A DNA stretch of 64,000 bases. Source: a phage. The position numbers and the translations under genes were made by a program. Every line of letters starts with the position of its first letter. Positions within the stretch are counted from its first letter, which is position 1. The stretch lies in NCBI GenBank assembly GCA_024672315.1, contig GCA_024672315.1_4714.1. One strand, given 5' to 3'. The notes under the pieces are model-generated. The model had not been told where the DNA came from, ran no database searches, and saw nothing but the letters and a program-made list of their open reading frames with translations. Shown in pieces: positions 12,322 to 29,508 of the stretch.

Positions 12322-12376
12322 TCTTTCGATTCCTATTAAAAAGTGACCGATTTCTGTGGTCGAGATTGCTAATAAA

Positions 12377-12838: not shown

Positions 12839-12885
12839 GTCCTATACGAACATGAAAAACCGTTAATTTTTACCGTAGTCGTGTG

Positions 12886-13161: not shown

Positions 13162-13227
13162 CTTTATCTCCTTAACGGGTGCTGGTAACGCAGCATAAAC
13201 CCTCCCCGAAGGGAGGGCGGTTAACGA

Positions 13228-13785: not shown

Positions 13786-14264
13786 TGATTTAATTGCTCC
13801 AGAAACGCACGTCCCGATTTACTTGCTTTTAAATGCTGTTCTGCGGAAGTAAGCAGAAGATCGGTTGGCGTGTATGCAGCGCCACCTTTCCATGCTGTTT
13901 TCAGTTTACCCTTTTCGATACTGAACTGAATCAGTTGTTGGGTACCGAAGTTAAGCGTGTTCGTCGCAGCACTAAATACACCACCCATCATGCTGTAACC
14001 AAAGACTTTCACGTTTTCCGTGTAGAAGTCATTGTCGATCAATTTGTTCTGAAGCTCGAGTTGGTCGGACGGTAGCAATCCCCCATCAAAGACGCTTAAA
14101 ATACCAGCCAGGCGATACATACTCACCTTTCCTGAAACGCCCACCACGTAATTGCCATACAGGGTTTCTTCCAGTTTAGCAACAACGGTGCGATCGTCGG
14201 AGGTTTTCATCGAAACCTCAATACCATCACCAACTTCTGTTAACGTTAAATCAACGATACTCAT
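13782..14264 (-). CDS. hypothetical protein
   Basis: 160-aa ORF, 4-nt overlap with the phosphoesterase gene. Confidence 0.4.
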   Translation of the reverse strand: MSIVDLTLTEVGDGIEVSMKTSDDRTVVAKLEETLYGNYVVGVSGKVSMYRLAGILSVFDGGLLPSDQLELQNKLIDNDFYTENVKVFGYSMMGGVFSAATNTLNFGTQQLIQFSIEKGKLKTAWKGGAAYTPTDLLLTSAEQHLKASKSGRAFLEQLNQ

Positions 14265-14286
14265 TCATTATTCTCCGCTTTCATGT

Positions 14287-14973
14287 TTAACACATGATTT
14301 CACCATGTTTCTTTTCAACATACGTATAAACGTCATCCAAATAAGCAATGAGTTTATCACGATCCCCACACAGCGATTTAATCACCGCAATCTCTTTCAT
14401 ATAAAGCTGCTGACCTAACGCTGGATACGTAATCCAAGCGTAGCCGTCAGGCGCAAATTTAGAAATAAGATAATCGGCGGTTTCCTGTAATGCGAACTCT
14501 TTGCTCATCTGGCCGTAACGATGTTCGATTGCACGGATACCAAAACGTTCGCTATCGAGACGACCCATATCCGCCAGACGAAGCACCTGAGAAGCAACCG
14601 AACTACGTGGACCAGAGTACGATGCACGATGTTCAGCAATAAGTACGCGTATCTCCTCGATGTCTTCCGGTGTGAAAATATGCTGCTCGTTACGAAGCAG
14701 GATAACCGACGCACGAATACCCCCGATAAGGTGGTGGTATGTTCTGTTTTCGTGGCAAGCGATATCATGCATAAAAGCAGCGGTTAATAGACGACGACGT
14801 TCCGTGGGTCTGATGATCCCAACCACATCAGCAAGTTCATTTGCCAGTTCAACAACGGCAAGCACATGTTCTTCTTGATGTGCAAGATCGTTCTTCCGAA
14901 TATTTTCAATTACTTCAGCGCGTGTTTCCTGAGATAAAAAATTTAAACAATCCAACGAATATAAAGATTTCAT
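14287..14973 (-). CDS. HD-domain phosphohydrolase-like protein
   Basis: 228 aa; H...HD signature (AAFMHDIACHE); sits directly downstream of early-promoter-like motif 1. Confidence 0.5.
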   Translation of the reverse strand: MKSLYSLDCLNFLSQETRAEVIENIRKNDLAHQEEHVLAVVELANELADVVGIIRPTERRRLLTAAFMHDIACHENRTYHHLIGGIRASVILLRNEQHIFTPEDIEEIRVLIAEHRASYSGPRSSVASQVLRLADMGRLDSERFGIRAIEHRYGQMSKEFALQETADYLISKFAPDGYAWITYPALGQQLYMKEIAVIKSLCGDRDKLIAYLDDVYTYVEKKHGEIMC

Positions 14974-15013
14974 CGCACGTACCTCTTTGAATCTATTAAT
15001 AAATTTTCTTTAC

Positions 15014-15038
15014 TCACGTAAGTAATATAGCCGTGAAA
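15014..15038 (-). promoter_or_regulatory. conserved 25-nt promoter-like motif, copy 1 (TATATTAC core on the minus strand)
   Basis: Plus strand TCACGTAAGTAATATAGCCGTGAAA; near-identical copies at 39347 and 45204; lies about 50 nt upstream of minus-strand start codon 14973. Confidence 0.5.
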
Positions 15039-15133
15039 GGATTTGTGTTGGTCCGTCTCGATGCCCATCGTATTTTATGGATTGTCGAATGACGTCATTT
15101 TAAGGGACATCCCCGGCCTCCTCCCCAGGAAAG

Positions 15134-17263
15134 GTGTGGGGAGGAGTTTTTATCATACATTCTATTAAATCGAGCGCGATTATGTTGGATAGAATCAATC
15201 GTTTAATGAACCGAATAGCGGTTAAAAATCAGAGTAACAACACCGTGCATATCGGGGGTATCGATGCCTGGCGTCTTTCAGATGACATTCAGCGAATATG
15301 GGGTACCTCCCGATTTATGAAACATATGTTTCGTAATTTCTCTTCTAGTGGACTCAGTCTCCACAACTTTTACCTTCCCGATTTCGTTTATATTCTCGAA
15401 ACGATCATCGAAGCAAAGAATACCCGCAGTAATAAACGCATGCTGAAACACCTTATTGAGGTACTGCTGCAGGAAACCTGGTTGCAAAATACCACAATCG
15501 AGCAACCTGCAATCCTCGATAAAGCACGCATGAACAAAATGCTAACGCTCTCTTTGTTCGATTATCAAGATGAGTTTATCGACATCTATAACCGTAACGT
15601 ACCTAAATACCGACTGAAAGGATACGTGTGCGCAATGGGTGCCGGTGCGGGTAAAACAATCACCGCATTGGCTTTAAGCGCTGCAATGAACGTCGACGTA
15701 TTTGTGGTCTGCTGTCCTAAGAACACCATGCGTTCAGCATGGCAATCCGATGTAAACAAAGCCATCGTTGACCCTGCAACAGAAACCGCGTTCTGGTCAG
15801 ATACAATGCCCCCATCACAGCTGCAGAAAAGCGATAAGTATTATTTTCTGCATTACGAGTCGATGGGTTTATTAAACGATGTGATGATCAAGCATAAACG
15901 CACAGCGAAGCGCGTGTTGATCGTGGTTGACGAAAGCCATAACTTCAACGACAAGAACAGCCAACGTTCCCAACGACTGGTTGATCTCGTACAGACGATG
16001 CGTCAGACCATGAATGCGGATGTGCATGTCTTGTTTATGTCGGGTACGCCCGTTAAACAGATGGGTTCTGAGATGATCCCCTGTTTAGGTTGTATCGACC
16101 CGATGTTCCAAGGACAGGTGGTCGATAGCTTCAAAGCAATTTACGGTTTAACCAGCAGTCGCGCTAACGATATCCTCAGACATCGTCTTGGGTTCATGAT
16201 GCATGTCGTACCTAAAGAGGCTTACCGTAAAACCCGTCCGGAAGTTCAGGATGTTTACGTGAAGCTCCCTAACGGTAGCGATTATACCATCTCAAGTATC
16301 CGTGACGACATGGCGATATTTGTACGCGATCGGGCGAAGTATTACAAGGATAACTGGGGGCATTACAGAAAGATTTTTGATGATGCCTTGGACTACTATC
16401 GTAAGACTATTCGTACCGACGGAGAACGTAAAGAGCTATCTCGATACGAATCGATTGTTGCTCGTTTCCAGAAGGGTTACGACCCTGTCAGAGACAAAGA
16501 AGATGCGATGTTCTGCAACGCGTTTGAAAAACGTTCCATCATGCCGGTTCTTCCTTCTGATTTAAGGGTTGCTTTCAAAGACGCCAAGAGCGTCATCAAG
16601 TACGTTGGGTTGAAAATTCAGGGTGAAGCGTTGGCGCGTGTTCTAGGTGCAGCCCGCATTCGGTGTCATGTCGACATGGTGGAGTACATCGACTTCGAAG
16701 GGTACATCAACAACGCTGAAGCCAAAGTGTTGATCTTCACGTCGTACGTTCAGGTGGTTGAGCGCGTCGACAACATGCTTCGTGATGCGGGTTTCTTACC
16801 GGAACCCATTTACGGGAAGACCAACAAGAACATCAACCAGATACTTGCTCGTCTACGCGATGATCCTGACAGCGGTCCCGCTATCGCAACATTTGATAGC
16901 TTAGCTGAAGGGGTTCCAATGCTGATGTGTAATGTGGGTCTTTTCCTGAACAACCCATGGCGTTCATCCGATGAAATCCAAGCCATCAGTCGTCTCGATC
17001 GTGTAGGGCAAACGCAACCTGTTCGGATCTATCGTTTCATGTTGGATACAGGAAGCGAGGGTAACGTTTCTACACGTAGCCACGAAATCATGGAGTTAAG
17101 TCGACAGCTTGTTGAAGAAATCACGGGTGTCAAATACGTGGTGAACAAGCAAGACGATGTTAACTTGCAGGAAACGTTGGCGATGGAAGGATACGATCAA
17201 TACGTTACCGTAAACACCACGGAATACGATATTAAACCACGACCTGCGTTCTTGGAATGGTGA
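15134..17263 (+). CDS. SNF2/SF2-family helicase
   Basis: Walker A GAGAGKT, DExH-like VVDESHNF, helicase C-terminal motifs; track ORF starts at GTG 15134 inside a hairpin, first ATG is at 15182, so the start is uncertain. Confidence 0.65.
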   Translation: MWGGVFIIHSIKSSAIMLDRINRLMNRIAVKNQSNNTVHIGGIDAWRLSDDIQRIWGTSRFMKHMFRNFSSSGLSLHNFYLPDFVYILETIIEAKNTRSNKRMLKHLIEVLLQETWLQNTTIEQPAILDKARMNKMLTLSLFDYQDEFIDIYNRNVPKYRLKGYVCAMGAGAGKTITALALSAAMNVDVFVVCCPKNTMRSAWQSDVNKAIVDPATETAFWSDTMPPSQLQKSDKYYFLHYESMGLLNDVMIKHKRTAKRVLIVVDESHNFNDKNSQRSQRLVDLVQTMRQTMNADVHVLFMSGTPVKQMGSEMIPCLGCIDPMFQGQVVDSFKAIYGLTSSRANDILRHRLGFMMHVVPKEAYRKTRPEVQDVYVKLPNGSDYTISSIRDDMAIFVRDRAKYYKDNWGHYRKIFDDALDYYRKTIRTDGERKELSRYESIVARFQKGYDPVRDKEDAMFCNAFEKRSIMPVLPSDLRVAFKDAKSVIKYVGLKIQGEALARVLGAARIRCHVDMVEYIDFEGYINNAEAKVLIFTSYVQVVERVDNMLRDAGFLPEPIYGKTNKNINQILARLRDDPDSGPAIATFDSLAEGVPMLMCNVGLFLNNPWRSSDEIQAISRLDRVGQTQPVRIYRFMLDTGSEGNVSTRSHEIMELSRQLVEEITGVKYVVNKQDDVNLQETLAMEGYDQYVTVNTTEYDIKPRPAFLEW

Positions 17264-17268
17264 TTAAG

Positions 17269-17296
17269 AAGCTCTGTCTGACATCAGACAGAGCTT
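17269..17296 (+). terminator. intrinsic terminator-like hairpin followed by TTATG
   Basis: Perfect 12-bp stem AAGCTCTGTCTG/CAGACAGAGCTT with ACAT loop, then T-rich TTATGTTGTATTTG; directly after the helicase stop. Confidence 0.6.
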
Positions 17297-17363
17297 TATG
17301 TTGTATTTGTTGCAACAATCGTATGACGTATACGCGTTGTACTTATTTAATAAGGCAGAATAA

Positions 17364-18815
17364 ATGAAACTTAAACAAAGCTGGAAAGACGAACTTCTCG
17401 CGTTAGTAAACAGCAAAAACAGCTTACAGCTGACATTAGACGACGTAAAATTTGAACTAACTGAACCGGTAAGCGAAGTGCCCGGAACGGTTGTCGTTAC
17501 GATCAAACCGAACGATGATAGCCGTTACTTTAACGAGCAGTCTCTGACCTACATCCGTCGAGACATCGCTAAAAACTTCACCGGGATCCCGTTACGCGTT
17601 ATCGTTAAAAATGATACCGCTGTAAGGGATATCATCAACACGATCGCTGAACGTTACGGATTGGTATTTGACACAACCGTCGACTTCCTCGAATCCGAGC
17701 TGAATAAACAAATTACGTTCGAAGACACCGGTATTAAAGACATTACGGTTCCGGTTGCAAACACGTCTTATGTTTGGGCTGGTAATCTTCAGTTCAATAT
17801 CGCTAACGATACGTTGAGCTTGATTACGATCATCAAGCAAACCAATCTTACGAATCTGGTTTATCTGGATGGCGTTGAAGCTGACACATCGGGTTCGTTA
17901 CTGTTAGCAACGACCTCGGTTATCGGCGAAAACGGAAATGCCGAAACAACTGAAGGTGTCCTTGCCGCCACGTACTTCCAGAATATCCTGAACGTCATGG
18001 TTCGTTATGGTGATATTACCAGCGAACAAATGCAACAAGCAATGCAGACAATTAACGAAAGCGAAGACGCTCGTAGAGTAGAGGTGCGGTCATACGGTGA
18101 CGCCGAGTTACTGGTAACCACCAAGAAAGATTGGGTTATCGGTAGCCTTAAGGGTGCTATGGTTGTTGGTCACGCTTCACCTAAACCAATCCAATACATT
18201 CTTAAAACAAAAGGCGGCAGCATTATATTGTCATTAGATGGTTGGACAAATGTCAATATCGATTGGGGTGATGGGAATAAGACGACGGAGACCTCAGGCG
18301 ATAATGAATATCGACACAATTATGCGGACACTACAGAACGTACGATCGTCGCTACGGGTACCCCTACCAACGTTGAAGATACAGAGGTACAGCAAAGCTT
18401 CACCGGTGGTAACATCACTGAAATCGTTGACTGGAACAACGGATTACCTAAGGCCCCATCATTCCTTGCGGCGAACAGTTTAACTAAGGTTCCTGATTAT
18501 ATCCCGGCATACTGGACATCGTTAGAAGGTATGTTTACGCGATGCAGCGCTATTAACAACGTGAACATCACCAAATGGAACACCCGCAACATTACTTCAA
18601 TGAAGGACCTCTTCTACGGTTGCGCTACATTCAACCAACCGATCGGTTCGTGGGATGTTTCGTCTGTTAAGAATGCAGACAATATGTTGTCTGGGTGCTT
18701 CGCGTTCAATCAGGATCTGAGCGGTTGGACGTTCCCGGCAGGCACTTCACACGTCAACTACGACGCCATGACCGCCGCATGGCAGGCTGGTTATAAACCA
18801 CACTTCGCCGAGTAA
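17364..18815 (+). CDS. DUF285 / BspA-like repeat protein
   Basis: 483 aa; C-terminal repeats MFTRCSAINNVNITKWNTRNITSMKDLFYGCATFNQPIGSWDVSSVKNADNMLSGCFAFNQDLSGW match the DUF285 pattern. Confidence 0.6.
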   Translation: MKLKQSWKDELLALVNSKNSLQLTLDDVKFELTEPVSEVPGTVVVTIKPNDDSRYFNEQSLTYIRRDIAKNFTGIPLRVIVKNDTAVRDIINTIAERYGLVFDTTVDFLESELNKQITFEDTGIKDITVPVANTSYVWAGNLQFNIANDTLSLITIIKQTNLTNLVYLDGVEADTSGSLLLATTSVIGENGNAETTEGVLAATYFQNILNVMVRYGDITSEQMQQAMQTINESEDARRVEVRSYGDAELLVTTKKDWVIGSLKGAMVVGHASPKPIQYILKTKGGSIILSLDGWTNVNIDWGDGNKTTETSGDNEYRHNYADTTERTIVATGTPTNVEDTEVQQSFTGGNITEIVDWNNGLPKAPSFLAANSLTKVPDYIPAYWTSLEGMFTRCSAINNVNITKWNTRNITSMKDLFYGCATFNQPIGSWDVSSVKNADNMLSGCFAFNQDLSGWTFPAGTSHVNYDAMTAAWQAGYKPHFAE

Positions 18816-18835
18816 AAAAAAAATAGATAGTATAT

Positions 18836-18868
18836 CTTCCTCCCTACCCATAACGGGCGGGGAGGAAG
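18836..18868. terminator. bidirectional terminator-like GC hairpin
   Basis: CTTCCTCCC...GGGAGGAAG stem; A9 run on one side (T9 on the minus strand), TTTATG on the other; between convergent genes. Confidence 0.5.
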
Positions 18869-18885
18869 GTTTATGTGGTTATGAC

Positions 18886-19224
18886 TTAGAACCAGAGTTC
18901 TTTCATGAAGTAGGCTTCCATATCGTAGATAAGCCACTCGTCAGGGATTTCTAAAGGATCGTCTTCGGTTAAGGTCAGCATGTGTAGGGCGAACGCACGC
19001 TTAATATCGTTCAGCAGTTTCTCGTCGTCGTAACCTTCAGGTAACTTACGGTCAACCAGCTGGGTTTGTTTATAGACATCGCGGAACGCTTCAGGGCTGT
19101 GTTTGTCCATCGGAAATTGTTCAGCGGCCTGAACCATCGAAAGCGTCCAGCTTACAACATTGTAACGCTCACCGTTAATTTCACTGAACTGATCATCGAT
19201 TAAACAGATTTGTTGTACGTTCAT
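18886..19224 (-). CDS. hypothetical protein
   Basis: 112-aa ORF. Confidence 0.4.
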   Translation of the reverse strand: MNVQQICLIDDQFSEINGERYNVVSWTLSMVQAAEQFPMDKHSPEAFRDVYKQTQLVDRKLPEGYDDEKLLNDIKRAFALHMLTLTEDDPLEIPDEWLIYDMEAYFMKELWF

Positions 19225-20114
19225 TCATTTTCTCCATTCTTATCTTGATCGCAATCACACTCTTCGTTGTTCTTCTTACTTAAACGTAAGACACTGAGTG
19301 CAGCATGCTTAAGTTCTTGCAACGCGCTTTTCAGCTGACCTTCTTCATCGAAATCAAAATACTTCTCGTTGTAGCTTAACGCTGGAATCATATTTACGAG
19401 AGGTTCGATGGCAGGCATTAGCATTTCAATGACGACCTTAGGATCAACAAAGCGTTCAAACCCTTCAGGAAGTTTGCTCGCTACAACCTTATCGTTCTTG
19501 ATGTAGAATTTGTTCTTGAACAGATCGTCAAGAATAGCGTTCTCTTCATCCGTACGTTTTGCGTGAGGACGATCGATCATCTGCACAAACACGCCGCTCA
19601 ACGCTTCAGGCACGGTCGGATTTTCACGAAGATAAGTTCCAGCTGGAATTTCAATATCGATCTTCGTCCACTCAACAACCTGGTGGTCTCGCGTATAGAT
19701 GACGTCAACTTCCCATGCTAGACCATCAGCGCTTTCTACGGTGTAACGTGTTTTCGCCTGGCCTTCAGGAGCCATACGTTCGATCGCGTCAAACATCTCG
19801 ACTGGGATTTCGACTTCGCTTTCCGTTGCGTCACCTGGACCACGATACACCTTCGTGGTCATGATGTATTTCGGCTCTTCGTTATCGATCTGTATCGCAC
19901 GTGCGCGCACCTGACCTTTCACACCACCAACGGCCGTGTTATCAAACAACCATTGATGTTGCACCATATGTTCAATTTTTGATGCAACCTGACGAAGACG
20001 TTCAACACCGTCTTCAGCCAGTTTACCAAAGAAGACCAGCTCACGTTCCTGCTGTGTCTCACCACTTAACATCATTAAATTGGCGATTTGTTTCACGCCT
20101 CTTACTTGTGACAT
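19221..20114 (-). CDS. hypothetical protein
   Basis: 297-aa ORF. Confidence 0.45.
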   Translation of the reverse strand: MSQVRGVKQIANLMMLSGETQQERELVFFGKLAEDGVERLRQVASKIEHMVQHQWLFDNTAVGGVKGQVRARAIQIDNEEPKYIMTTKVYRGPGDATESEVEIPVEMFDAIERMAPEGQAKTRYTVESADGLAWEVDVIYTRDHQVVEWTKIDIEIPAGTYLRENPTVPEALSGVFVQMIDRPHAKRTDEENAILDDLFKNKFYIKNDKVVASKLPEGFERFVDPKVVIEMLMPAIEPLVNMIPALSYNEKYFDFDEEGQLKSALQELKHAALSVLRLSKKNNEECDCDQDKNGENE

Positions 20115-20182
20115 ACATGCTCCGGTTATAAGGGCCTACATCGAGGCCCCTCATTGATTTTTGATTCCACCAAACGCTATCG

Positions 20183-22813
20183 TTACAATTCAAAATCTTC
20201 ATCGATAACACGCTGGGTAAGCACTTTGTCGCTGAAGAACTCCACCTTGCGCTGATGGTATTTACGGTGCGCTTCGATAGAAGTACATACCAGATACCAG
20301 AACGTTGGCGTCATTCCTTCAAACTTCCCTTTCAGCTGACGCAGTCGTCCCAACACCTGAATGTTACCGGTTCGTGACCCCATCGCTAGCGTCATGAACG
20401 TCATCACCAAGTCAGGAAGGTCGATACCTGTACCTGCTGATTTCACGGTTGTAACGCTAATATCGTTATCCAGCAAGACCATGAAATCTTCTTCAGCAGT
20501 ATAAGGACCGATCTCTAACTCAGGAATACGCTCACTGAGATAGTGCGACAACGACTTACACATATCAACGGTTGCACAATACACCAGCATCTTCATGCCT
20601 TCCTGATACTGGTTCATGAAACCCTTGATAATAACGGTATAGATGAAGTTAAAGTACGCGAGTTTGAGTTGCTTGTTCTTCATGATAGACTGTTCGAATA
20701 TCGTGTGTGAATAAGCTCCGCCAAACCCTTTGTATCTGACTTTATCTGTACTGCGTAGTCGATATGTTACCGCATTTACCGCAATGTATTTCTTGTATTC
20801 GCCTTTCGCATAACGGGCTTCTTTCGGATACATCAAATACAACATCTGTTCGATAAACGGATCATCGGATACCGCTGTTGCCGACAGATAAATGATTTCC
20901 GGAATATTGGCGTAACACTTGACCTTAAACAAGAAATGCAATGCTTCGTGACACTCGTCATGAATCAGCAAACCTATGCCGGTCTTTTCCCAAAACTCAG
21001 CGGGATGGAAGGCATATGGTGCAACGCAATTATTCTTCTCGTAGTCCGCAATGTAACGTTGGAACATGTTCAAGGAGAACAATGCGATTTTGAAGTCGAG
21101 CTCACCTTGTTCAACCAAGGTTTGAAACTCCAACATACTGTAACGAGGAATGTCGGGATGCGGTGGATCCTCCTTAGCGTTCCCGCGTATCTCGATAACG
21201 TCCCCTGGTTCCATCCCGAAGAAGTTCAGCAGTGAGCTTCGCCAACCTGGCATGTATCTCGGCGACAGAATGATACCCGTCCGTACACCACGTCTAAACA
21301 CGATTTCCTGTGACATCGCGGTGTTATGCGTGACGATAAAGTCTTTCACCACAAACAACGCTGAAGGATCATCGATCGTAATGCAACGTGCATCCGCAAC
21401 ACGGGAAGGTTTAATTGACAGTACACGTAGCATACTTTCGAAGTATTGTCCGTCAACAGGACAGCGTTCCAGCTTCTTCGGAAGCGTAACGATTTCATGC
21501 GGACGTTTATACCGTATCGTAACCATGTACGCTAGCCGTCCCTTATGTCTCTCCCCCTTGTAGGTGTAATACGGTTGTTTAATACGTAGACGAGCATACC
21601 CACCAATCGAACGAACCAAGTAGATAACGTCATCTGAAAGCTGTTTGCTCGAAGTACAGAAAACAATAGATCCTCCCTTCTCCACCGTTCCGTCGGTATC
21701 GATAAGACCTGCGAGTATTTCGCAACGTTGTCTGTGTGACGCCATCATGTACTGTTTCGGAACAAACTTCTCCCAGGATCGTTTACCCATCAACCCCAAC
21801 TGATCAAGCGCTAATGCCGTCTCTGACCGCCCACCGTAATTGATTAACGTTGCGGCAGGCGTCTTCGTTACCGCATAGTCGTATTTCTCGCGGTACTGTA
21901 TTTCACAGTCATCCGGAAGACGACTTAACACCTTATTCAAGATGAAATCGTCAGGAGTTGTGATTATCGGGGATGTTGATAAATGACCATCCCCTAACAG
22001 AACACCAAGCACGTACGGATCAAGCGGTAGATCTGCATCAGGAGTATGCTCAGACTCACAGTACGGAATGTAAAGTCGTTTATTGGACAGCTCCAGGATA
22101 CGAATCATCTCAAGTGTATTGATAACCCGCATGGGATAAGGATTGTTTTTGTCCCATCCCCAGTTAGGTCTCATACATGCCCAGAGATGCTCGCCGCAGG
22201 CTTCAACACGGCGACCGTCAGCAAAGACAATCTCATAGAGCTGTTTTGCTTTATGGTCGAAGATATTGGTTACCTTCGTTGGTCGGCCATTAGCAGCCGT
22301 GATGGTATCACCTATCTTCAAATCGCCTAATTGACGCCATCCGCCAGGGACTTTTACGAGCGTGGTAAGCGGATTTGCTTTACCCGACCCCGTTTGAGCG
22401 GTGTTTAGGCTCATTCTGAAGGGGGTATCCTTACCCCCGTCCATGTACTCCAACCATTCTTGCTGATCTTCACGCCATGGAAACTTCCATTTCTTTACGA
22501 ACTCCACTTCTTTACCTGGCACCGGATCGTGATAAACGATTTCCAACCACTCTTTTCGTATCCCTCGGGAAAAGATAAAATCCAAAAACGATTTCAATTG
22601 TTCACGGAGTAAGTATACCTCGCTATAATCGCTTCTCGCTGCGGCATACGTGTTTATGGTATCGGTAACCATTCTCCGTGTACGAGGGTCACGCCGTTTC
22701 CTCAGATGCAAACAACGGTCTCGAAGGTAATGGCCGATAAGATGGGCAAATCGAAGTCCGTATCCGCTCAGCCTCATGCCATGCGAGAAGACGTCGATAC
22801 GAGCTAACTTCAT
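20183..22813 (-). CDS. SF2 helicase containing an intein (host protein plus intein)
   Basis: 876 aa; Walker A TGSGK is interrupted, followed after about 352 aa by T and later DExH motif LIHDECHEA and helicase C-domain motifs; ATGA overlap with the upstream beta-prime C gene. Confidence 0.75.
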   Translation of the reverse strand: MKLARIDVFSHGMRLSGYGLRFAHLIGHYLRDRCLHLRKRRDPRTRRMVTDTINTYAAARSDYSEVYLLREQLKSFLDFIFSRGIRKEWLEIVYHDPVPGKEVEFVKKWKFPWREDQQEWLEYMDGGKDTPFRMSLNTAQTGSGKANPLTTLVKVPGGWRQLGDLKIGDTITAANGRPTKVTNIFDHKAKQLYEIVFADGRRVEACGEHLWACMRPNWGWDKNNPYPMRVINTLEMIRILELSNKRLYIPYCESEHTPDADLPLDPYVLGVLLGDGHLSTSPIITTPDDFILNKVLSRLPDDCEIQYREKYDYAVTKTPAATLINYGGRSETALALDQLGLMGKRSWEKFVPKQYMMASHRQRCEILAGLIDTDGTVEKGGSIVFCTSSKQLSDDVIYLVRSIGGYARLRIKQPYYTYKGERHKGRLAYMVTIRYKRPHEIVTLPKKLERCPVDGQYFESMLRVLSIKPSRVADARCITIDDPSALFVVKDFIVTHNTAMSQEIVFRRGVRTGIILSPRYMPGWRSSLLNFFGMEPGDVIEIRGNAKEDPPHPDIPRYSMLEFQTLVEQGELDFKIALFSLNMFQRYIADYEKNNCVAPYAFHPAEFWEKTGIGLLIHDECHEALHFLFKVKCYANIPEIIYLSATAVSDDPFIEQMLYLMYPKEARYAKGEYKKYIAVNAVTYRLRSTDKVRYKGFGGAYSHTIFEQSIMKNKQLKLAYFNFIYTVIIKGFMNQYQEGMKMLVYCATVDMCKSLSHYLSERIPELEIGPYTAEEDFMVLLDNDISVTTVKSAGTGIDLPDLVMTFMTLAMGSRTGNIQVLGRLRQLKGKFEGMTPTFWYLVCTSIEAHRKYHQRKVEFFSDKVLTQRVIDEDFEL
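21323..22378 (-). mobile_element. intein with LAGLIDADG homing endonuclease domain
   Basis: About 352 codons between GSGK and T; Hint-like N-terminal block, two LAGLIDADG motifs (LLGDGHL, AGLIDTDGT), C-terminal VTHN followed by +1 Thr; first intein residue appears to be Ala. Confidence 0.7.
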
Positions 22814-24816
22814 AACGTGATTACATCCTCCGGTTTAGGTTCTTTACGCGGTAACAGCATGTAGTCGATCGGATGATCCGGCTTCATGGTTGGGATATAA
22901 CTGTTCGGGTTTTGGAACGCATCCAGCTGCTCTTGGTGAGCGAACTTCATACTCAAGGAGCGCATGTTCATGTTCTTCTTGAAGGTGCTGAAGTATCGTG
23001 TTGTTCCCTGTTTCGGCATGCGATAATCTTTCGTGTGTGGCGAACGAATCATGCTGGCGTAGAGAATAACATCGAGATGCGAAAGGTTCATTCGCAGACG
23101 CTGGGCACACAGACGATGCCAATAGTACAGCACGTTTGCAACTTCCTCCGGTGTTGCTTCGTCTTCCGAGAGGAATCCGGCACTGAAAGAACCTTTCCCG
23201 AATTTGAACTCACGTTCGATTTCTTTTGCGTACTCCATCATGTTTTTGTGGATTAACGGCATCTGGAATAACGTACGTGAATTGTCCCAATGTTTCAAGT
23301 CGAAAATCACAATCCCGTCAGACGTCACTTCCCAGCTATGGCGTTTGAGATAACGGATAAACGCTTTACTCGGTACAACAGGACGGCCGCAGAAATCGAA
23401 ATTGACTTTGAGTTTACGATAGCTTTCATCTTTCCTGTCGTAAATCTCCATATCGCAAAGCGTCATGTTAAACAGACGTTGCGGTATCAACGAACTGATT
23501 TCTTCCGCTTCCGCTACGTCGTACAACATGTTCGCAAGACCTAACTTCATCTTAATCAGCACATGTTTACCTTTCAGCTCACGTGCGAGTTTGATGTCGT
23601 TCATGTTCTGGCTGTAGCGAAGGATATGTTGATATTCCGGTGGGATTGGTGCTGTGGATACCGTTGACGAACCATCGTGGTGTTTGGTAGAAAGAATGTT
23701 CTGCGTTACCTGTTGCGAACAGGTACGCGCTGCACCGTCGCCGACATTATCAGTCAATGCGAAGTTATGACTTAATTCACCGTAACACGTCGTACATACC
23801 CCAGCAGGATCGGGATGATGACAATAGTTAACGGAGCGCATACGCACTGTGGTGCCGATCAATTCTTTCATGTGTGGCTGTATCGCTACCAACGAACCGT
23901 CATCACGAATAATGAATCGACCGTGGAAGCCACGCAGGTCAGTCTCATCACGGATTGGCATCGGGATGGTCTCTTTACTACCACAATCACCAGGATGGAG
24001 TCGTTGTACAACCGCTGTCGCTATCTGAAGTTCACGACCGAAATATTCAGACTTTTTAATCTGCTCTTTGTTGAACAGCAACGATTTCGCCGCAGAACGA
24101 CTTTCTTTCAAGCTGTCAGGAAGAGAGATCAAACCGGCTGCATACGACCGCATTACCGGATCGCGGAATATCTCGGAGTTAATATCGGTCAAGAATCCAC
24201 GCATCCCAATACACTGTAGCACCTGCCCAATCGAAACGTGTTCGGTTCTTACCGCACGTGCGATAGGGTTTGCATGTAACGTTTTATCGGTGCTCAGTAC
24301 CTTTGTCAGTTTCTTGTATGCGCTTTCGATACCTTCGCGGGTGGGTTCCGCTTCAGCGATGATTTTCTTAACTTCGGGGTGTACGGTAATCTGATAAAAA
24401 TCGTCCGCGCAAATCGTTGTTACGTATTCCTCCAACGCATACGTAAAGAAGTTATACACATTGTTAAACATATCGAACAGTGCTTTCCAGAGAACCTCAC
24501 GATTCTCTTGTGGATAAGCATACATGCATTGACGATACGCGGCGCTTTGCAACGCAACCGATGAACCCGCTGTGAACTTGCGTTTATCAACCAGGTTCTC
24601 TTTTGTCAATGGTGTCTCAGGATACATGCGATGCACAGACCAGTGCATGTAACTAAAGAAAATGCGTCGTGCACGCAATTCATGAACGCCATCGTCCATC
24701 TCGATATACACACGGTCATTAGGTTGTGCCCACTCGAACACCTCATCAACCGGCCAATGCATAAGCTCGCGTGCCCTCACACGACGTTTCGTGGTGGTTG
24801 TCTGTGTTGTAATCAT
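22810..24816 (-). CDS. multisubunit RNA polymerase beta-prime-like subunit, C-terminal fragment
   Basis: 668 aa; VRMRSVNYCHHPDPAGVCTTCYGE...VGDGAARTCSQQVTQNILSTKHHDG aligns with E. coli beta-prime [21 protein letters not shown]...[25 protein letters not shown] (trigger-loop region) as recalled. Confidence 0.7.
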   Translation of the reverse strand: MITTQTTTTKRRVRARELMHWPVDEVFEWAQPNDRVYIEMDDGVHELRARRIFFSYMHWSVHRMYPETPLTKENLVDKRKFTAGSSVALQSAAYRQCMYAYPQENREVLWKALFDMFNNVYNFFTYALEEYVTTICADDFYQITVHPEVKKIIAEAEPTREGIESAYKKLTKVLSTDKTLHANPIARAVRTEHVSIGQVLQCIGMRGFLTDINSEIFRDPVMRSYAAGLISLPDSLKESRSAAKSLLFNKEQIKKSEYFGRELQIATAVVQRLHPGDCGSKETIPMPIRDETDLRGFHGRFIIRDDGSLVAIQPHMKELIGTTVRMRSVNYCHHPDPAGVCTTCYGELSHNFALTDNVGDGAARTCSQQVTQNILSTKHHDGSSTVSTAPIPPEYQHILRYSQNMNDIKLARELKGKHVLIKMKLGLANMLYDVAEAEEISSLIPQRLFNMTLCDMEIYDRKDESYRKLKVNFDFCGRPVVPSKAFIRYLKRHSWEVTSDGIVIFDLKHWDNSRTLFQMPLIHKNMMEYAKEIEREFKFGKGSFSAGFLSEDEATPEEVANVLYYWHRLCAQRLRMNLSHLDVILYASMIRSPHTKDYRMPKQGTTRYFSTFKKNMNMRSLSMKFAHQEQLDAFQNPNSYIPTMKPDHPIDYMLLPRKEPKPEDVITL

Positions 24817-24961
24817 TATTACTTTCCGATTTAAATGGTTTTATCATACGGTTTACCAATTCCGTTGGAATTTACTATCGCCATGATAGCATCGGGAATC
24901 CCTTCTCTTAGGTTATGTAGGTGTTAATATATCTCCACTGCCGGAGTAAAAGTCGGCAACA

Positions 24962-25447
24962 TTACCCGGCTTTCTGTCGTAGAGCGTACGGATCCATAGC
25001 GTCTGACATATCCGAAACAACCGTGAGAATGAAGCCCTTTATCTGTCTCACTTCGGTCACACGCAATCCTTTATCGTTACGATATACGTTTTCTTCACCA
25101 ACCAACTTTGGTCGGATAACATAAACGCCATCAACAAACGGGAATGTCGAATACGGATAAACACCAATAGAAATGATGTTTGGATGATCGCCTCGAAGGT
25201 CACGTCCGAACTTATCGACTCGACCATAAATCGTTCCATCCGCACCCTCCACTTCAATGAGGTCGTTACGAATATCCTGAAATAGCTGTTCTAAGGTGTT
25301 GGCAGGGTACGTATATGCGACGCCTAACGCTGGATCCTCGATCGTTTTGACATTGAATCCGTTAAGCCAAACAATCCGTTCATTCGCCCATGTTTCTTCA
25401 TATACCGTTAATCCATCGCCGTATATGTTGGCGTGTGCTATCTCCAT
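24962..25447 (-). CDS. hypothetical protein
   Basis: 161-aa ORF. Confidence 0.4.
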   Translation of the reverse strand: MEIAHANIYGDGLTVYEETWANERIVWLNGFNVKTIEDPALGVAYTYPANTLEQLFQDIRNDLIEVEGADGTIYGRVDKFGRDLRGDHPNIISIGVYPYSTFPFVDGVYVIRPKLVGEENVYRNDKGLRVTEVRQIKGFILTVVSDMSDAMDPYALRQKAG

Positions 25448-25604
25448 AATCTCATTTCCTCTTCTACGTAGAAATAGATGACATGTTGGATATACGTTGC
25501 CTTTGCATATATTGCTTTATTTCCGTCAGAAATAACGGAAAATAAAAACAACAACATAGTTCCCTCCCACCTCCACATGGGAGAGGGAGGGCTATACGTG
25601 TTTA

Positions 25605-25967
25605 TTACTCGATGCTGTCTTCTTCCGTATCTTCCTCTTCAGAACCATCGAATGTTTTCATTGTGGCGGTGGTATCCCAGTTAGCTGCGTAATCAGCCAT
25701 CGCTTCGCGCAGTGCTTCTTCACCAGCATCACCAGCCAGGTCAAGTACAACCAAACCCTGTGCGACGTTTTGAGCGACGGTATCAATAACGGTTGCATCT
25801 TCTTCAAAACTACGTACGGGTTCAATGGTACCTACATCAACAGCGTAGTTCGTGGTTGCTGTAAACACGGCGACTTGTAGCGCATTGCTATCTTCATCAT
25901 GCAGTGCTGCCTCAATACCGATTGGACGAGCCAGTTCTTGCAGTGTTAATTTGCGAATTAAGTTCAT
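25605..25967 (-). CDS. hypothetical acidic protein
   Basis: 120-aa ORF with strongly acidic C-terminus. Confidence 0.4.
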   Translation of the reverse strand: MNLIRKLTLQELARPIGIEAALHDEDSNALQVAVFTATTNYAVDVGTIEPVRSFEEDATVIDTVAQNVAQGLVVLDLAGDAGEEALREAMADYAANWDTTATMKTFDGSEEEDTEEDSIE

Positions 25968-26000
25968 TATGTTTTTCCTCAGGTGAATGTTAGCAATCGT

Positions 26001-26348
26001 TTAAAACTTTAAAACTTTTTCGATACGATGGTTGACGAATTCATTGAACGACTCTTCGGCTTGTTCGATAATTTCATCAACATCGATATCTAATTGTTGG
26101 GGTTGGATAACATGCTCTTTCATGGTTTCCAGCCAGTATTCGGCTTTAACCATAACGTTAGCGACGTGTTCGACCTGGCTGCGTATGTCGACGATCTGGC
26201 AATCAGGATTGTTAATATCGATGATGTGTCCGTGGTGTTTGATAAACCCTAACTTATTCGACGCCCTTACCGCATCGCGGGCAAGGTCTTGCAAGATTAA
26301 ATTATTGACGTAGTTCACTGCTATGGAACGATTTTCTTTATCACTCAT
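26001..26348 (-). CDS. hypothetical protein
   Basis: 115-aa ORF. Confidence 0.4.
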   Translation of the reverse strand: MSDKENRSIAVNYVNNLILQDLARDAVRASNKLGFIKHHGHIIDINNPDCQIVDIRSQVEHVANVMVKAEYWLETMKEHVIQPQQLDIDVDEIIEQAEESFNEFVNHRIEKVLKF

Positions 26349-26467
26349 ACCAGGGATCCTCTTTTAAGTGTTCACATTCTAGTGTTAAGCAGTTAAAATA
26401 AACCGTCCCTTTAATCAGCATAAACATCCTCCTCCCACCACATGGGCAGGAGGAGGCGTAATATGCA

Positions 26468-26878
26468 TCAGAAAGGAGGACGATCTTTAAATTCTAGCAA
26501 TGTATCTTCGAAGCAAGCGATAAGTTCAGACTGCAATTCGGTACGGCCTTGTTCACCGAAGAGTTCCAGCAACATTAACCCCCGAGCGGTCTTCGTAGCA
26601 ACCTCTTCGCAGATGCGGAGATCGCGAACTTCATCATCGCCGACATCTTTACGTAACTGCGCTGCAATGGGCTTAAGATTGCCGTTTTCATCGTGTTCGT
26701 CACGAAATGCATCATAAGCCGCATCGATGTTCGCGATCCGTGTCAATCCTTCAGAATCCCGCCAGTCTCGATATAATCCAAGCAGACGGTTATGATTCTT
26801 CGTTTTGACGTTCGGTGCTGGAAGGTTGCGCAACAGATGTGGTGTAATCATTGCTATCACGCTATCCGAATGATCCAT
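26468..26878 (-). CDS. hypothetical protein
   Basis: 136-aa ORF. Confidence 0.4.
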   Translation of the reverse strand: MDHSDSVIAMITPHLLRNLPAPNVKTKNHNRLLGLYRDWRDSEGLTRIANIDAAYDAFRDEHDENGNLKPIAAQLRKDVGDDEVRDLRICEEVATKTARGLMLLELFGEQGRTELQSELIACFEDTLLEFKDRPPF

Positions 26879-26889
26879 CGTATACCTCG

Positions 26890-29058
26890 TTAGCTTTCGC
26901 AGTCATCTGCGTCGATGATTTGTCCGCCAGCAACGTTCAGCTGATGATACAGGATCCTCAACGCACGGTTGCCGCCAATGGGATACTTCTCGAAGTTGGT
27001 CGCAATAGGAATCGCTGACGGCTTATCGGTCGCATAGATGCTTTCAGTGATGCTATCCACCTGTTTTGGATTGTTCGCATAGTCCATAAAGACGCTTGCG
27101 AACCATCCGCCAGCAAAGGCGGTAACTTCGCGATGTTCAGATTCACCACAGTAACGAGTCGGTTGCTCTTTACCAGGGGAACTGTATTTATCGCTATTAC
27201 TGAGTTTCGACGGTAATCCGTGCGCTTGCAGTTTAGGAATACCCACAGCTGACCAGTCGTTCGCCGTCTTCTCCAACATCATGATGTACGTGTCACCGAT
27301 CGCAATATCGTTCTTGGTTGTCCGCCATTGCCCGGAACGCCCACGATACCGTACAGGACCTTTCTTCAACGGGAACTCACGAATCAGATTCTCCATACGT
27401 TCTGAACCTGCTGCGATACTGTCCGTCGGGATATAAACTTCCGTACCGTGGCGTTGTACGTACCGTAAATGATCCCATTTATCCTCATCCGTGATACAGT
27501 ATTTTTCAACAACCTGTTCCACGAACTCAGGACTGACGATATAGTAGTAGCGCATCAGTGTGTTCCAAGCGGTCTCCAGATCGCCTGCATCCATCACCGG
27601 TTTCAGTTCACGCATGATCTGATCACCAACACCGTTGATGTATGGCGCATTAACACGACTCAAACTCATCCTTTTGATTACCGTGCTATCGTCGAACATA
27701 AAGTCCGCAACATTACCCCATTGGTCAACCGGCATTTCATCGTCTTCCATGATGTCGGTTACGACGAATTTATCACCCGCCATACCGGTGAATTTAAACC
27801 CGATACCTGGAACAACGTCGTACGTGTAGGTGATGGTCACACGCCAATCATCGAGATTCTCTTTGCGGTAATCGCGGGTTGGTAACACATGACGTAGCTG
27901 TCCGTTCGGATTGCGGATATCGATACCGTGTTCAGCATCAGCCAGGTTCAACCACCACATCACCGTTTGATGATGACGTATCGGCGTACCAACGCGTTCA
28001 CGTTCGTACTTACGAACAGCATCCTGAATTCGGGTGTAAAGCAAACCGATTGCGTTTTCATATTTCAGGAATTGACGATACGGAGGACGCATCTTCTCTT
28101 CCATCATAATCGCACGCTCGCGGGCTTGACGTCCAGAACGACGATGTCGATCGCTGACAACATCGATATCCGTTACACGCGCATTCGGTTCAGCGTAAGT
28201 GAGATCATCGTAAACATAATCCACACGCTGAAGGTTACATGTCATCATGTCAACAACGCTAAGAATAGGATCGATTTCGCGTGTTGCTGCAAGTAACCCA
28301 TCTTTACGAATACGCTCACCGTTCTCGGGTATTGCTTGATATACCTCGTCATCACCGTAGAGATTGATTGGGTATCGTGATTTACCTGACGTGATTGTTC
28401 GCTTCTCAATACCTGTGCTGGTGAAATGCTTCAATACACCACGACGGGCAACACCACCATCCTCGATACACTGATAGAAGCTACCGAAACACACTTTGCA
28501 ATCGCGACCGTAACCCCACTCGCGTGTTTCTTGATTGATCGCTGGGCTTTCCATCAAACGAGAATATCGCGGTACGATCTGGCCTCGACGGAGGGAATGG
28601 AACAAGTTGGTTGGTCGAAAACGGAAACCGTACTGCTGATGCATGATGTGATGCTCAGGCACTTCAAGCAAGCGTAGCTCGTGACGGTTACCATCCTCTT
28701 GGTTTTCATACAGCACGTAATGCATCGTGTTTGTTTTGATGCTGTTTGCTGTATGCCCCGGTTGGAAACGTGGGATGATATCTATGATGCGAGATTCGAC
28801 TGGAAACTCTACTGACCACGTGTTCTGTCCGTACTGGTATTCGATCCCCGTCGTCAGTCGGGACGGTTTCGCATCTTTGATAACCAACGCTTGGCTAAGA
28901 TGTCCACCAAACATCGCAGCGCGCTGTGCTGAGTTATAATGCAGTAGCCCGTTAAGTCCAGTCCCTACGCCAGTATACTCCTGTTTAATGGGAATGATTT
29001 TACCTTCAGCGATTGCCTGCTTCACAGATTCATAAAGAGGTTTTTCTTTATAATGCAT
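26890..29058 (-). CDS. multisubunit RNA polymerase beta-like subunit, C-terminal fragment
   Basis: YNSAQRAAMFGG resembles GANMQRQAVP; GDKFVVTDIMEDDEMPVD...SRVN resembles GNKGVVSKI..EDMPY..SRMN; GDTYIMMLEK resembles GYMYMLKL; CGESEHREVTAFAG resembles GGQRFGEMEVWALEAYG; start placed at ATG 29058 (SD AGGAAG) rather than track start 29223. Confidence 0.65.
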   Translation of the reverse strand: MHYKEKPLYESVKQAIAEGKIIPIKQEYTGVGTGLNGLLHYNSAQRAAMFGGHLSQALVIKDAKPSRLTTGIEYQYGQNTWSVEFPVESRIIDIIPRFQPGHTANSIKTNTMHYVLYENQEDGNRHELRLLEVPEHHIMHQQYGFRFRPTNLFHSLRRGQIVPRYSRLMESPAINQETREWGYGRDCKVCFGSFYQCIEDGGVARRGVLKHFTSTGIEKRTITSGKSRYPINLYGDDEVYQAIPENGERIRKDGLLAATREIDPILSVVDMMTCNLQRVDYVYDDLTYAEPNARVTDIDVVSDRHRRSGRQARERAIMMEEKMRPPYRQFLKYENAIGLLYTRIQDAVRKYERERVGTPIRHHQTVMWWLNLADAEHGIDIRNPNGQLRHVLPTRDYRKENLDDWRVTITYTYDVVPGIGFKFTGMAGDKFVVTDIMEDDEMPVDQWGNVADFMFDDSTVIKRMSLSRVNAPYINGVGDQIMRELKPVMDAGDLETAWNTLMRYYYIVSPEFVEQVVEKYCITDEDKWDHLRYVQRHGTEVYIPTDSIAAGSERMENLIREFPLKKGPVRYRGRSGQWRTTKNDIAIGDTYIMMLEKTANDWSAVGIPKLQAHGLPSKLSNSDKYSSPGKEQPTRYCGESEHREVTAFAGGWFASVFMDYANNPKQVDSITESIYATDKPSAIPIATNFEKYPIGGNRALRILYHQLNVAGGQIIDADDCES

Positions 29059-29077
29059 AGGACTTCCTATTATCGAA

Positions 29078-29443: not shown

Positions 29444-29448
29444 GATAA

Positions 29449-29477
29449 CCCTCCCACAGCGTAAAGCGTAGGGAGGG
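29449..29477 (+). terminator. GC hairpin followed by TTTATGCCG (plus orientation)
   Basis: CCCTCCC...GGGAGGG stem, then CATTTATGCCGTC; immediately after the stop of 29078..29443. Confidence 0.5.
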
Positions 29478-29508
29478 CATTTATGCCGTCGTTCGATGAC
29501 TTAATACA

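Follow-up and report, generated by a model that had tools for sequence, protein, structure and literature searches.

What a segment of 352 codons, starting with alanine, is doing in the middle of the P-loop of a helicase gene is the question raised by the locus considered here. This locus lies in a window, i.e., the whole stretch of 64,000 nucleotides that was analysed, from a Goslar-like giant E. coli/Salmonella phage, a nucleus-forming chimallivirus. An earlier note, made from the letters of the DNA, had proposed the presence of an intein, and the analysis reported here makes it very probable that the insert is a mobile intein of class 3 in which a double-motif LAGLIDADG homing endonuclease is embedded. 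The coordinates of the features are collected in Table 1.

Table 1. Features of the intein-containing helicase gene, with positions in the window
Feature	Positions	Strand	Remarks
Precursor gene, 876-aa SF2 (DExH) helicase with the intein inside	20183..22813	minus	orthologue: Goslar gp164
N-extein, 145 aa, last residues Walker A ...TGSGK	22379..22813	minus	collinear with Goslar gp164 residues 1-145
Intein, class 3, 352 aa (Ala1 ... His351-Asn352)	21323..22378	minus
C-extein, 379 aa + stop, first residue Walker A Thr	20183..21322	minus
HINT splicing domain, N-terminal part, intein residues 1 to ~106	22061..22378	minus	PDB alignment to class 3 DnaB inteins, residues 4-67; model secondary structure; boundary approximate
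Block A, ANPLTTLVKVPGG	22340..22378	minus
Block B, GRRVEACGEHLWAC	22175..22216	minus	block positions per PMC2807308
His64, block B10	22187..22189	minus
Trp66, block B12, class 3 signature residue	22181..22183	minus
LAGLIDADG homing endonuclease domain, intein residues ~107-311	21446..22060	minus	boundaries approximate
LAGLIDADG motif 1, PYVLGVLLGDG, with Asp130	21986..22018	minus
LAGLIDADG motif 2, LAGLIDTDG, with Asp229	21689..21715	minus
Block F, DARCITIDDPSALFVV	21347..21394	minus
Cys332, block F4, predicted initiating nucleophile	21383..21385	minus	aligns with MchDnaB1 Cys124
Block G plus +1 residue, DFIVTHN/T: Thr350 (G5), His351, Asn352 (cyclising residue)	21320..21343	minus
Thr+1 (Thr498)	21320..21322	minus

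The position of the insert could be determined to the base. The precursor reads ...NTAQTGSGK(145), continues with A146NPLTTLVKVPGGW...FIVTHN497 and resumes with T498AMSQEIV, the VTHN end followed by the +1 Thr being read directly from the ORF. Removal of the 352 codons yields a 524-aa protein that aligns without any gap with gp164 of Escherichia phage Goslar, at 97.7% amino acid and 91.1% nucleotide identity, and it precisely restores GSGKT, the insertion being in frame as that of an intein. This comparison with an intein-free homologue, suggested in the earlier note as a means of fixing the insertion point, bore out the limits given there: the approximately 352 residues announced after TGSGK are exactly 352. 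The first residue is indeed Ala (Ala146, codon GCA at 22376..22378), a boundary fixed by the Goslar allele, and shifted boundaries giving a Cys or Ser first residue are excluded by the codon-exact collinearity with Goslar at both protein and DNA level. Since an intein-less allele collinear to the codon exists, chance is of no concern for the insertion. The Lys/Thr position has been described as the 'classic' P-loop intein site (PMC5050341), and it is between the Walker A Lys and Thr that the insert is located. A group I intron or another RNA element was rejected, as no Rfam family reached threshold across the window and the reading frame is continuous. Besides, a tblastn search of the window for further inteins, with the intein as query, found only itself, the next match having an E-value of 0.46.

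Regarding the host protein, the spliced sequence carries GSGKT at 142, DECH at 267, SAT at 292 and GRLR at 470, its motif VI reading QVLGRLRQ. Motifs I, II, III and VI are all present, and judged from these motifs the host is an SF2-type helicase, as had been claimed. It matches PHROG 16 'DNA helicase' (E 1.6e-26) and NCBIfam XPB (E 6e-6), the Pfam families ResIII, DEAD and Helicase_C giving only scores below threshold and a search of PDB sequences with the spliced protein returning nothing at E up to 0.1. The precursor gene and the upstream ORF (22810..24816) share the ATGA overlap reported previously, GTTATGAAG, and an identical 4-nt overlap is found in Goslar gp165/gp164. This upstream ORF is a homologue of phiKZ gp74 (7ogp_D, E 1.3e-86) and matches the C-terminal half of bacterial beta-prime; the label 'beta-prime C' that it had been given is a reasonable one. 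The precursor gene stands immediately downstream of this nvRNAP beta-prime C-like gene. The computed masses are 101.2 kDa for the precursor, 40.0 kDa for the free intein and 61.2 kDa for the spliced product, the last value replacing the approximately 58 kDa expected in the earlier note. Two plus-strand ORFs that overlap the precursor gene, 21150..21563 and 22046..22330, were taken as shadow ORFs without support. Elsewhere in the window, an SNF2 helicase (15134..17263) carries GAGAGKT without interruption.

The residues of the insert were then compared with those of solved inteins. The best PDB matches of the intein in a phmmer search are MchDnaB1 (6rix/6riy, E 2e-9) and Msm DnaBi1 (6bs8), both of class 3, and in the PDB alignments W66, H64, C332, and T350 fall on Trp67, His65, Cys124, and Thr143 of MchDnaB1, which are the catalytic residues of that class 3 intein (PMC7664689). 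Cys332 stands in the context RCITID and Thr350 in VTHN, while block B7 is occupied by Cys61. Class 3 inteins are devoid of an N-terminal nucleophile, are initiated by the block F Cys and show a preference for P-loops and helicases (PMC2807308); their WCT triplet consists of Trp at block B12, Cys at F4, and Thr at G5 (PMC2807308, PMC5050341). The insert displays what is expected of an intein in general, with blocks A, B, F, and G, the block B His, a His-Asn end and a nucleophilic +1 residue, and of class 3 in particular, with a position 1 other than Cys, Ser or Thr, a complete WCT triplet and Thr+1; the Cys, Ser or Thr with which class 1 inteins carry out the N-S/O acyl shift at position 1 is replaced by Ala1 in the window copy. 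The earlier note was right to infer a non-canonical first splicing step from Ala1, and this step corresponds to the published class 3 mechanism (PMC2807308). Since the full class 3 signature is present, Ala1 is explained: in a helicase P-loop intein, it is a textbook class 3 situation and no new puzzle.

Conservation was counted over 45 full-length relatives. The first residue is Ala in 34 of them, with Gly in 5, Ser in 2, Glu in 2, and Leu in 1. His64 and Cys332 are each found in 44/45, Trp66 in 41/45, and Thr350 in all 45, and the terminal HN is found in 44 of the 45, followed by Thr (38/45) or Ser (7/45). Thr or Ser at +1 is typical of class 3 inteins, without being absolute. In addition, some alleles more than 90% identical to the window copy start with Ser (SLINSTP versus ANPLTTL) and keep the WCT triplet.

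The Pfam Intein_splicing profile reaches only E 0.027 with the insert, below threshold, and support for the HINT assignment therefore comes from the alignments to PDB entries, from that of the family and from the predicted fold. The AlphaFold2 model of the intein (pLDDT 94.5, pTM 0.92) is matched by Foldseek to TliVMA (E 5e-18), PI-SceI (TM 0.77) and PI-PfuI, and also to class 3 mini-inteins (target TM ~0.8), including MchDnaB1 and Msm DnaBi1, as well as to gp41-1. The predicted structure of the insert is thus a HINT fold, and the Hint-like N-terminal block that had been claimed agrees both with the alignment of the block residues to solved class 3 inteins and with the model.

A splicing route for the window intein can be derived from the published class 3 pathway. 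In the 101-kDa precursor, ATP would not be properly bound because the P-loop is split. As position 1 is Ala, the N-S acyl shift at the first residue would be absent, and the thiol of Cys332, in block F, would instead attack the Lys145-Ala146 peptide bond with the assistance of His64 and Trp66 of block B, thereby giving a thioester-linked branched intermediate. The N-extein would then be handed to the hydroxyl of Thr+1, giving a block G branched intermediate, after which cyclisation of Asn352, aided by His351, would release the 40-kDa intein, and an O-N shift would restore GSGKT in the 61-kDa helicase. In turn, when two phages infect the same cell, the endonuclease of the free intein would cleave alleles that lack the intein, Goslar gp164 being one of them, and repair of the break would transfer both the intein and the extein sequence next to it.

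With regard to the endonuclease, both LAGLIDADG motifs mentioned in the earlier note were found, and Pfam LAGLIDADG_3 (E 7e-7) and Hom_end (E 1e-4) match the insert above their cut-offs. Catalytic Asp130 is present in 45/45 relatives and Asp229 in 43/45. Foldseek matches the predicted endonuclease domain to I-DmoI (E ~1e-5, target TM ~0.55) and to the endonuclease domains of PI-SceI and PI-PfuI, the modelled domain having the pseudo-dimeric alpha-beta-beta-alpha-beta-beta-alpha fold. From the Pfam matches and the conservation of both catalytic Asp residues, the endonuclease looks intact, and its candidate cleavage target is the Goslar gp164 site ACCGCAGGCACGGGGTCTGGTAAA/ACAGCCATGTCGCAGGAGATCACC.

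Related inteins are found in 869 phage records, and the insert has homologues within host proteins of unrelated kinds, among them PhoH, terminase, ClpX, DnaB, and RNAP subunits. The spliced helicase matches 290 phage records, from related jumbo phages, of which 170 cover at least 80% of it in one place; among the matches listed, the full-length helicase rows span about 1.5 kb, which is too short for an intein. Judged from these records, the distribution of the intein is sporadic, as expected for a mobile element. The intein-bearing allele belongs to a 66-member cluster at 90% identity, several members of which are on contigs of about 237 kb, and the intein is present in the 12 of 12 full-length members of this cluster that were examined. 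Close alleles vary mostly within the endonuclease domain. A second Goslar-like contig (sister allele L005) carries a different class 3 intein, of 229 aa, at the same insertion site, in which no LAGLIDADG motif is detectable. Intein-plus and intein-minus alleles coexist in genomes that are about 96% identical. No donor of the intein was found; in phage records, its best relatives do not exceed 44% identity.

Over the 24 kb of synteny compared, identity to Goslar is lowest directly beside the insertion, the first 450 nt or so of the C-extein (about 20870..21322) being unusually divergent; such a minimum, resembling a recombination tract, is as expected for co-conversion. This divergent flank matches Goslar only, at 83%, and no donor was found for it. 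Since it is common to the second intein-bearing allele, it could instead be the allele of Goslar that is recombinant.

In this context, the alternative that best withstands the data is that of a splicing intein whose endonuclease is inactive and which is inherited vertically in this phage lineage, without homing. Homing endonucleases commonly decay after fixation of the allele, and one close allele has Asp130 changed to Gly, which indicates that such decay occurs in this lineage; the lack of a detectable LAGLIDADG motif in the 229-aa intein of L005 and the presence of the intein in every examined full-length member of the 90% cluster point in the same direction. In the window copy, however, the two motifs are preserved with D130 and D229 and match family-invariant columns, the domain is modelled with high confidence, and intein-plus and intein-minus alleles are found in genomes about 96% identical with the recombination-like tract at the site. 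An inactive endonuclease is regarded as unlikely.

A dead, non-splicing remnant, leaving the helicase inactive or working with a split P-loop, would be in line with the Pfam Intein_splicing score below threshold, but the residues for all four splicing steps are present and conserved. Besides, the first 450 nt of the C-extein differ from Goslar by 87 nucleotide changes that result in just 8 amino acid changes, by which count the extein is under strong purifying selection; this suggests that the helicase is still needed and argues that the intein splices. Given also that the helicase matches 290 records of related jumbo phages and that the intein-bearing allele belongs to the 66-member cluster, with several members on contigs of about 237 kb, a dead remnant appears very improbable. 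Even less credible is a class 2 (KlbA-like) intein, where the +1 residue itself makes the attack on the N-terminal junction, without a block F branched intermediate: the N-terminal nucleophile is absent here as in class 2, but class 2 inteins are defined by the absence of the WCT triplet and rely on attack by Cys+1 (PMC2807308), whereas the triplet is complete and conserved in the window intein, its +1 residue is Thr, and its closest solved relatives are class 3 inteins. Finally, the reading of the 352 residues as a conserved accessory, non-splicing domain of the helicase family, by which the earlier note would have been refuted, has a negligible probability and met with the opposite outcome, nothing being found in its favour. 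The segment is precisely absent from Goslar gp164, 170 of the 290 phage records cover at least 80% of the spliced helicase in one place, with the listed full-length rows spanning about 1.5 kb, and homologues of the insert lie in unrelated proteins.

The mobile class 3 intein being retained, one may ask whether it is more than a selfish passenger, either through its endonuclease or through a redox-conditional activation of the helicase, which we consider quite improbable. The endonuclease of an intron in PhiPA3 reportedly serves as an interference-competition weapon in co-infected cells, and by analogy the intein endonuclease could possibly play this role against intein-less Goslar-like phages; if so, it must enter the phage nucleus, perhaps carried along by the helicase precursor before splicing. 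It is also possible, as in Msm DnaBi1, that the thiol-dependent class 3 chemistry ties helicase activation to the redox state, via Cys332 and the block B7 Cys61. The chief value of the finding is one of annotation: public records of this phage lineage label the gene 'hypothetical protein' or 'LAGLIDADG family homing endonuclease', while it should read intein-containing helicase, with a mature product of 524 aa. Besides, class 3 gains a full-length member that bears an endonuclease and comes from an E. coli/Salmonella phage, and the natural intein-less target allele in the well-studied model phage Goslar provides a convenient pair for class 3 splicing and homing in nucleus-forming phages. Knowledge of splicing mechanisms is unchanged by the finding, class 3 being already well described. 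A 2025 Annual Review on nucleus-forming phages discusses intron homing endonucleases and never mentions inteins.

Among known systems, class 3 inteins include the DnaB intein of mycobacteriophage Bethlehem (Tori et al. 2010, PMC2807308), DnaBi1 of Mycobacterium smegmatis (6bs8, PMC6195587) and DnaB1 of M. chimaera (6rix/6riy, PMC7664689). Like these, the window intein has no position-1 nucleophile, a WCT triplet, a block B His, a His-Asn end and Thr+1, and shares with them the P-loop insertion in a helicase-type ATPase and the phage context. It differs in its host protein, an SF2 DExH helicase of a chimallivirus and not DnaB, and, unlike the crystallised Msm and Mch mini-inteins, it keeps a full LAGLIDADG endonuclease. 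Over its N-terminal 65 residues, the window intein shares about 30% identity with the class 3 DnaB inteins, and its B7 residue is Cys61.

Much closer in genomic setting are the allelic inteins of Erwinia phage Rebecca (gp251, MK514281) and Proteus phage 10 (MT661596), which lie in orthologous helicases at the same GK/...THN/T site, the helicase genes being directly downstream of an RNAP subunit gene as in the window. Their architecture and size are those of the window intein, as are the EHLW, QC(I), and VTHN motifs, and identity is 41-43%; the phages belong to different genera, and in Proteus phage 10 the first residue of the intein is Leu. Neither record mentions an intein, the gene being listed in each as a helicase and no more. 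At the level of the predicted structure, the window intein resembles PI-SceI (the VMA1 intein), TliVMA, and PI-PfuI, which give its strongest structural matches (E 5e-18 to 1e-11, TM up to 0.77), in that a HINT domain is interrupted by a double-motif LAGLIDADG endonuclease; these three are nevertheless of class 1, with a Cys1 nucleophile and Asp at block F4, and only 12-17% identical to it. Finally, the window element is comparable to the intron homing endonuclease of a nucleus-forming jumbo phage in sitting in an essential gene and in that it could in principle act on co-infecting relatives, but whereas the latter endonuclease lies in a group I intron that is removed at the RNA level, the element of the window is an intein.

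Reading of the 876-aa helicase ORF places the insert exactly where the earlier note had claimed it: the Walker A motif, ...NTAQTGSGK145, is followed by 352 residues, A146NPLTTLVKVPGGW...DFIVTHN497, and then by T498AMSQEIV..., which bears out the reported succession of TGSGK, insert, VTHN and +1 Thr. The upstream ORF stops and the helicase starts within a shared ATGA, the overlap from which coupling had been proposed, and this upstream gene, described as beta-prime C, is indeed a phiKZ gp74 homologue, with similarity to bacterial beta-prime in that subunit's C-terminal half. That description was accurate, and its only correction concerns size, the computed masses being 101.2 kDa for the precursor, 40.0 kDa for the intein and 61.2 kDa, instead of about 58 kDa, for the spliced product.

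Coordinates of the intein, its host gene and neighbouring genes in the window
Feature	Position	Strand	Basis or remark
Helicase ORF, 876 aa	20183..22813	minus	
Intein insert, 352 residues	21323..22378	minus	ORF translation
Non-virion RNA polymerase subunit, 668-aa ORF	22810..24816	minus	phiKZ gp74 homologue (7ogp_D, E 1.3e-86), PHROG 3015
Beta-like, 777-aa ORF	26890..29223	minus	weak Rpb2 domain 6 match
SNF2-type second helicase (ResIII, SNF2-rel, Helicase_C)	15134..17263	plus	P-loop GAGAGKT uninterrupted
BspA-family leucine-rich repeat surface protein	17364..18815	plus	Goslar annotation; after SNF2-type helicase

On alignment evidence, the window comes from a phage closely related to Escherichia phage vB_EcoM_Goslar (Goslar), a nucleus-forming chimallivirus: positions 10000..34000 match Goslar 137771..160707 with 96% identity over 96% of the length, the only large gap being the 1056-nt intein insert. 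Goslar gp164, a 524-aa protein labelled "DNA helicase", aligns to the window gene as two segments that together account for 60% of it, and deletion of codons 146-497 gives a gap-free alignment to gp164 (97.7% amino acid and 91.1% nucleotide identity) in which GSGK|TAMSQ is restored. The boundaries of the insert can therefore be moved neither at the protein nor at the DNA level, and this codon-exact collinearity fixes its first residue as Ala, as previously suspected, and the residue that follows it as Thr. The possibility that the 352-aa segment is a conserved, non-splicing accessory domain of the helicase is excluded, since it is missing precisely in gp164 and since, among 290 phage records matching the spliced helicase in a tblastn search, 170 align with at least 80% of it at a single place, the full-length matches listed spanning about 1.5 kb.

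An identical 876-aa protein exists in public data, within a 66-member cluster at 90% identity whose members are named only "hypothetical protein" or "LAGLIDADG family homing endonuclease"; two of them start at Met48 (829 aa). Several come from ~237-kb contigs, some of these in Salmonella enterica assemblies, so that sequencing data of bacterial isolates do contain Goslar-like phage genomes. The order RNA polymerase subunit, then helicase, is kept in Goslar, Erwinia phage Rebecca and Proteus phage 10. The gp74 homologue and the beta-like ORF are split multisubunit RNA polymerase genes, which are typical of phiKZ-like phages, while the SNF2-type helicase and surface protein genes are the only plus-strand genes of their stretch, their Goslar counterparts being flanked by annotated terminators.

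The identification of the insert as an intein, supported overall, arises from both sequence and predicted fold. In its central part the insert matches the Pfam families LAGLIDADG_3 (E 7e-7) and Hom_end (E 1e-4), with a match to Intein_splicing near its N-terminus that falls below threshold, and within the insert every NCBIfam match at E ~1e-5 or better falls on the intein part of a model that includes one (DnaB PRK07773, E 2e-15; RFC; Tes; and, more weakly, RecA and GyrA). The solved structures that match best by sequence are two class 3 inteins, from M. chimaera DnaB (6rix/6riy, E 2e-9) and from M. smegmatis DnaB (6bs8, E 9e-8), PI-SceI matching the endonuclease part. An AlphaFold2 model built from a 41-sequence alignment (pLDDT 94.5, pTM 0.92) retrieved with Foldseek the bifunctional inteins TliVMA (E 5e-18), PI-SceI (TM 0.77) and PI-PfuI, as well as class 3 mini-inteins (target TM ~0.8) and I-DmoI, a LAGLIDADG enzyme that is free-standing. 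No second intein was found in the window, nor does any Rfam family, group I introns included, score anywhere in it.

Class 3 inteins were defined by Tori et al. by the lack of a Ser, Thr or Cys at the N-terminus and by a "WCT" triplet, whose members stand at position 12 of block B (Trp), position 4 of block F (Cys) and position 5 of block G (Thr); mostly they are followed by Thr or Ser at +1, and they typically interrupt the P-loop of a helicase-like ATPase, for example DnaB, RecG, SNF2 or a phage terminase (PMC2807308), the Lys|Thr position being called the "classic" P-loop insertion by Kelley et al. (PMC5050341). In the window intein, blocks B, F and G read GRRVEACGEH64LW66AC, DARC332ITIDDPSALFVV and DFIVT350HN|T, and HMMER aligns His64, Trp66, Cys332 and Thr350 with His65, Trp67, Cys124 and Thr143 of 6rix, the catalytic triad plus Trp (PMC7664689). 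Across 45 full-length relatives from metagenomes and genomes, position 1 is Ala (34), Gly (5), Ser (2), Glu (2) or Leu (1), the +1 residue is Thr (38) or Ser (7), and His64 (44), Trp66 (41), Cys332 (44), Thr350 (45) and the terminal His-Asn (44) are kept; in a second family alignment, Cys332, Thr350, His351 and Asn352 are invariant columns. Host junctions are nearly all G-x-G-K | A-Q-P-L ... V-T-H-N | T, in PhoH, helicases, terminases, ClpX and other proteins. The insert carries every feature of class 3 inteins and of intein-borne LAGLIDADG endonucleases that can be judged from sequence.

The complete WCT signature thereby supports the non-canonical first step that the initial Ala had been taken to imply, which is the established class 3 pathway. 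Transposed from this published pathway, splicing would start with attack of Cys332, aided by His64 and Trp66, on the Lys145-Ala146 peptide bond, giving a thioester branched intermediate; the N-extein, the helicase part before the intein, would then be transferred to the Thr+1 hydroxyl, cyclisation of Asn352 would free the intein, and an O-N shift would leave the 524-aa helicase with a complete GSGKT P-loop. As Walker A is split while the intein is present, the precursor is expected to be inactive as an ATPase, like the P-loop inteins discussed in PMC6195587. A class 2 mechanism, which could also operate from Ala1, is unlikely, since class 2 inteins by definition lack WCT and rely on attack by Cys+1; a dead, non-splicing intein is likewise unlikely, the catalytic set being intact and the exteins under purifying selection. 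Four cluster alleles more than 90% identical (P0084, P0085, P0089, P0093) start with SLINSTP instead of ANPLTTL (intein residues 1-7, 22358..22378), the rest of the HINT domain hardly differing; a single intein lineage is thus polymorphic at position 1, consistent with a non-catalytic role of this residue.

Sequence comparisons point to present or recent mobility of the element. Both LAGLIDADG motifs are present with their catalytic Asp (Asp130 in 45 of 45 relatives, Asp229 in 43), and tblastn finds intein relatives, in differing host genes, in 869 phage records, 300 of them mycobacteriophages and most of them jumbo phages of Enterobacteria, Pseudomonas, Vibrio and Aeromonas. Same-site allelic inteins with 41-43% identity occupy the orthologous helicase of Rebecca and Proteus phage 10, and RAY and Ea35-70, close relatives of Rebecca, have this helicase without an intein. 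A second Goslar-like contig from IMG/VR, IMGVR_UViG_3300011560_000001 (L005), has at the identical GSGK|T site a different class 3 intein of 229 aa (residues 146-374 of gene 1501..3762), with Ala1, DHLW, RCITVD and VTHN|T, in which neither a LAGLIDADG motif nor a Pfam endonuclease match is detectable and whose DNA is only ~58-64% identical to that of the window intein. The helicase gene of the Goslar-like lineage therefore has at least three alleles.

Within the 24-kb syntenic block, the lowest identity to Goslar adjoins the insertion (77-87% over 20800..21322 versus ~96% elsewhere); the last 24 nt of the N-extein (about 22379..22402) are 75% identical, and 12 of the 48 nt flanking the site differ between intein-bearing allele and Goslar. 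Since the C-extein, downstream of the intein, has within its initial 450 nt 87 nucleotide changes, mostly synonymous, that yield only 8 amino acid changes, this tract looks like imported, still-selected helicase sequence, as co-conversion during homing predicts. The divergent tract is common to the window and L005 (mutually 91-98% identical), and the recombinant could therefore equally be the Goslar allele itself.

In 12 full-length close alleles of the cluster, variable positions number 36 of 352 in the intein versus only 12 of 524 in the exteins. Of the former, 24 fall in the endonuclease domain (21446..22060), many of them immediately behind LAGLIDADG helix 1 and in the strands that come next (intein residues 134-138 and 156-169), the usual DNA-contacting surface. 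The most realistic uncertainty is whether the endonuclease is still active: against the intact motifs of the window intein stand the D130G change of the catalytic Asp in allele P0094 and the motif-less L005 intein.

The searched literature yielded no intein linked in substance to Goslar, and a 2025 review of nucleus-forming phages nowhere mentions inteins. As far as this literature shows, class 3 had been seen neither in this phage lineage nor in such a host protein, a chimallivirus SF2 helicase encoded beside the nvRNAP beta-prime C gene. Mechanism, insertion site and phage association are all textbook, and the alanine, normal for class 3, is no puzzle. Where Thr or Ser usually stands at block B position 7, the window intein has Cys61 (22196..22198) and 25 of the 45 relatives have Cys as well, the family consensus at B6-B7 being Cys-Cys; the codon of the catalytic Cys332 lies at 21383..21385. 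Speculatively, the nearness of Cys61 to Cys332 brings to mind the disulfide that serves Msm DnaBi1 as a redox switch (PMC6195587).
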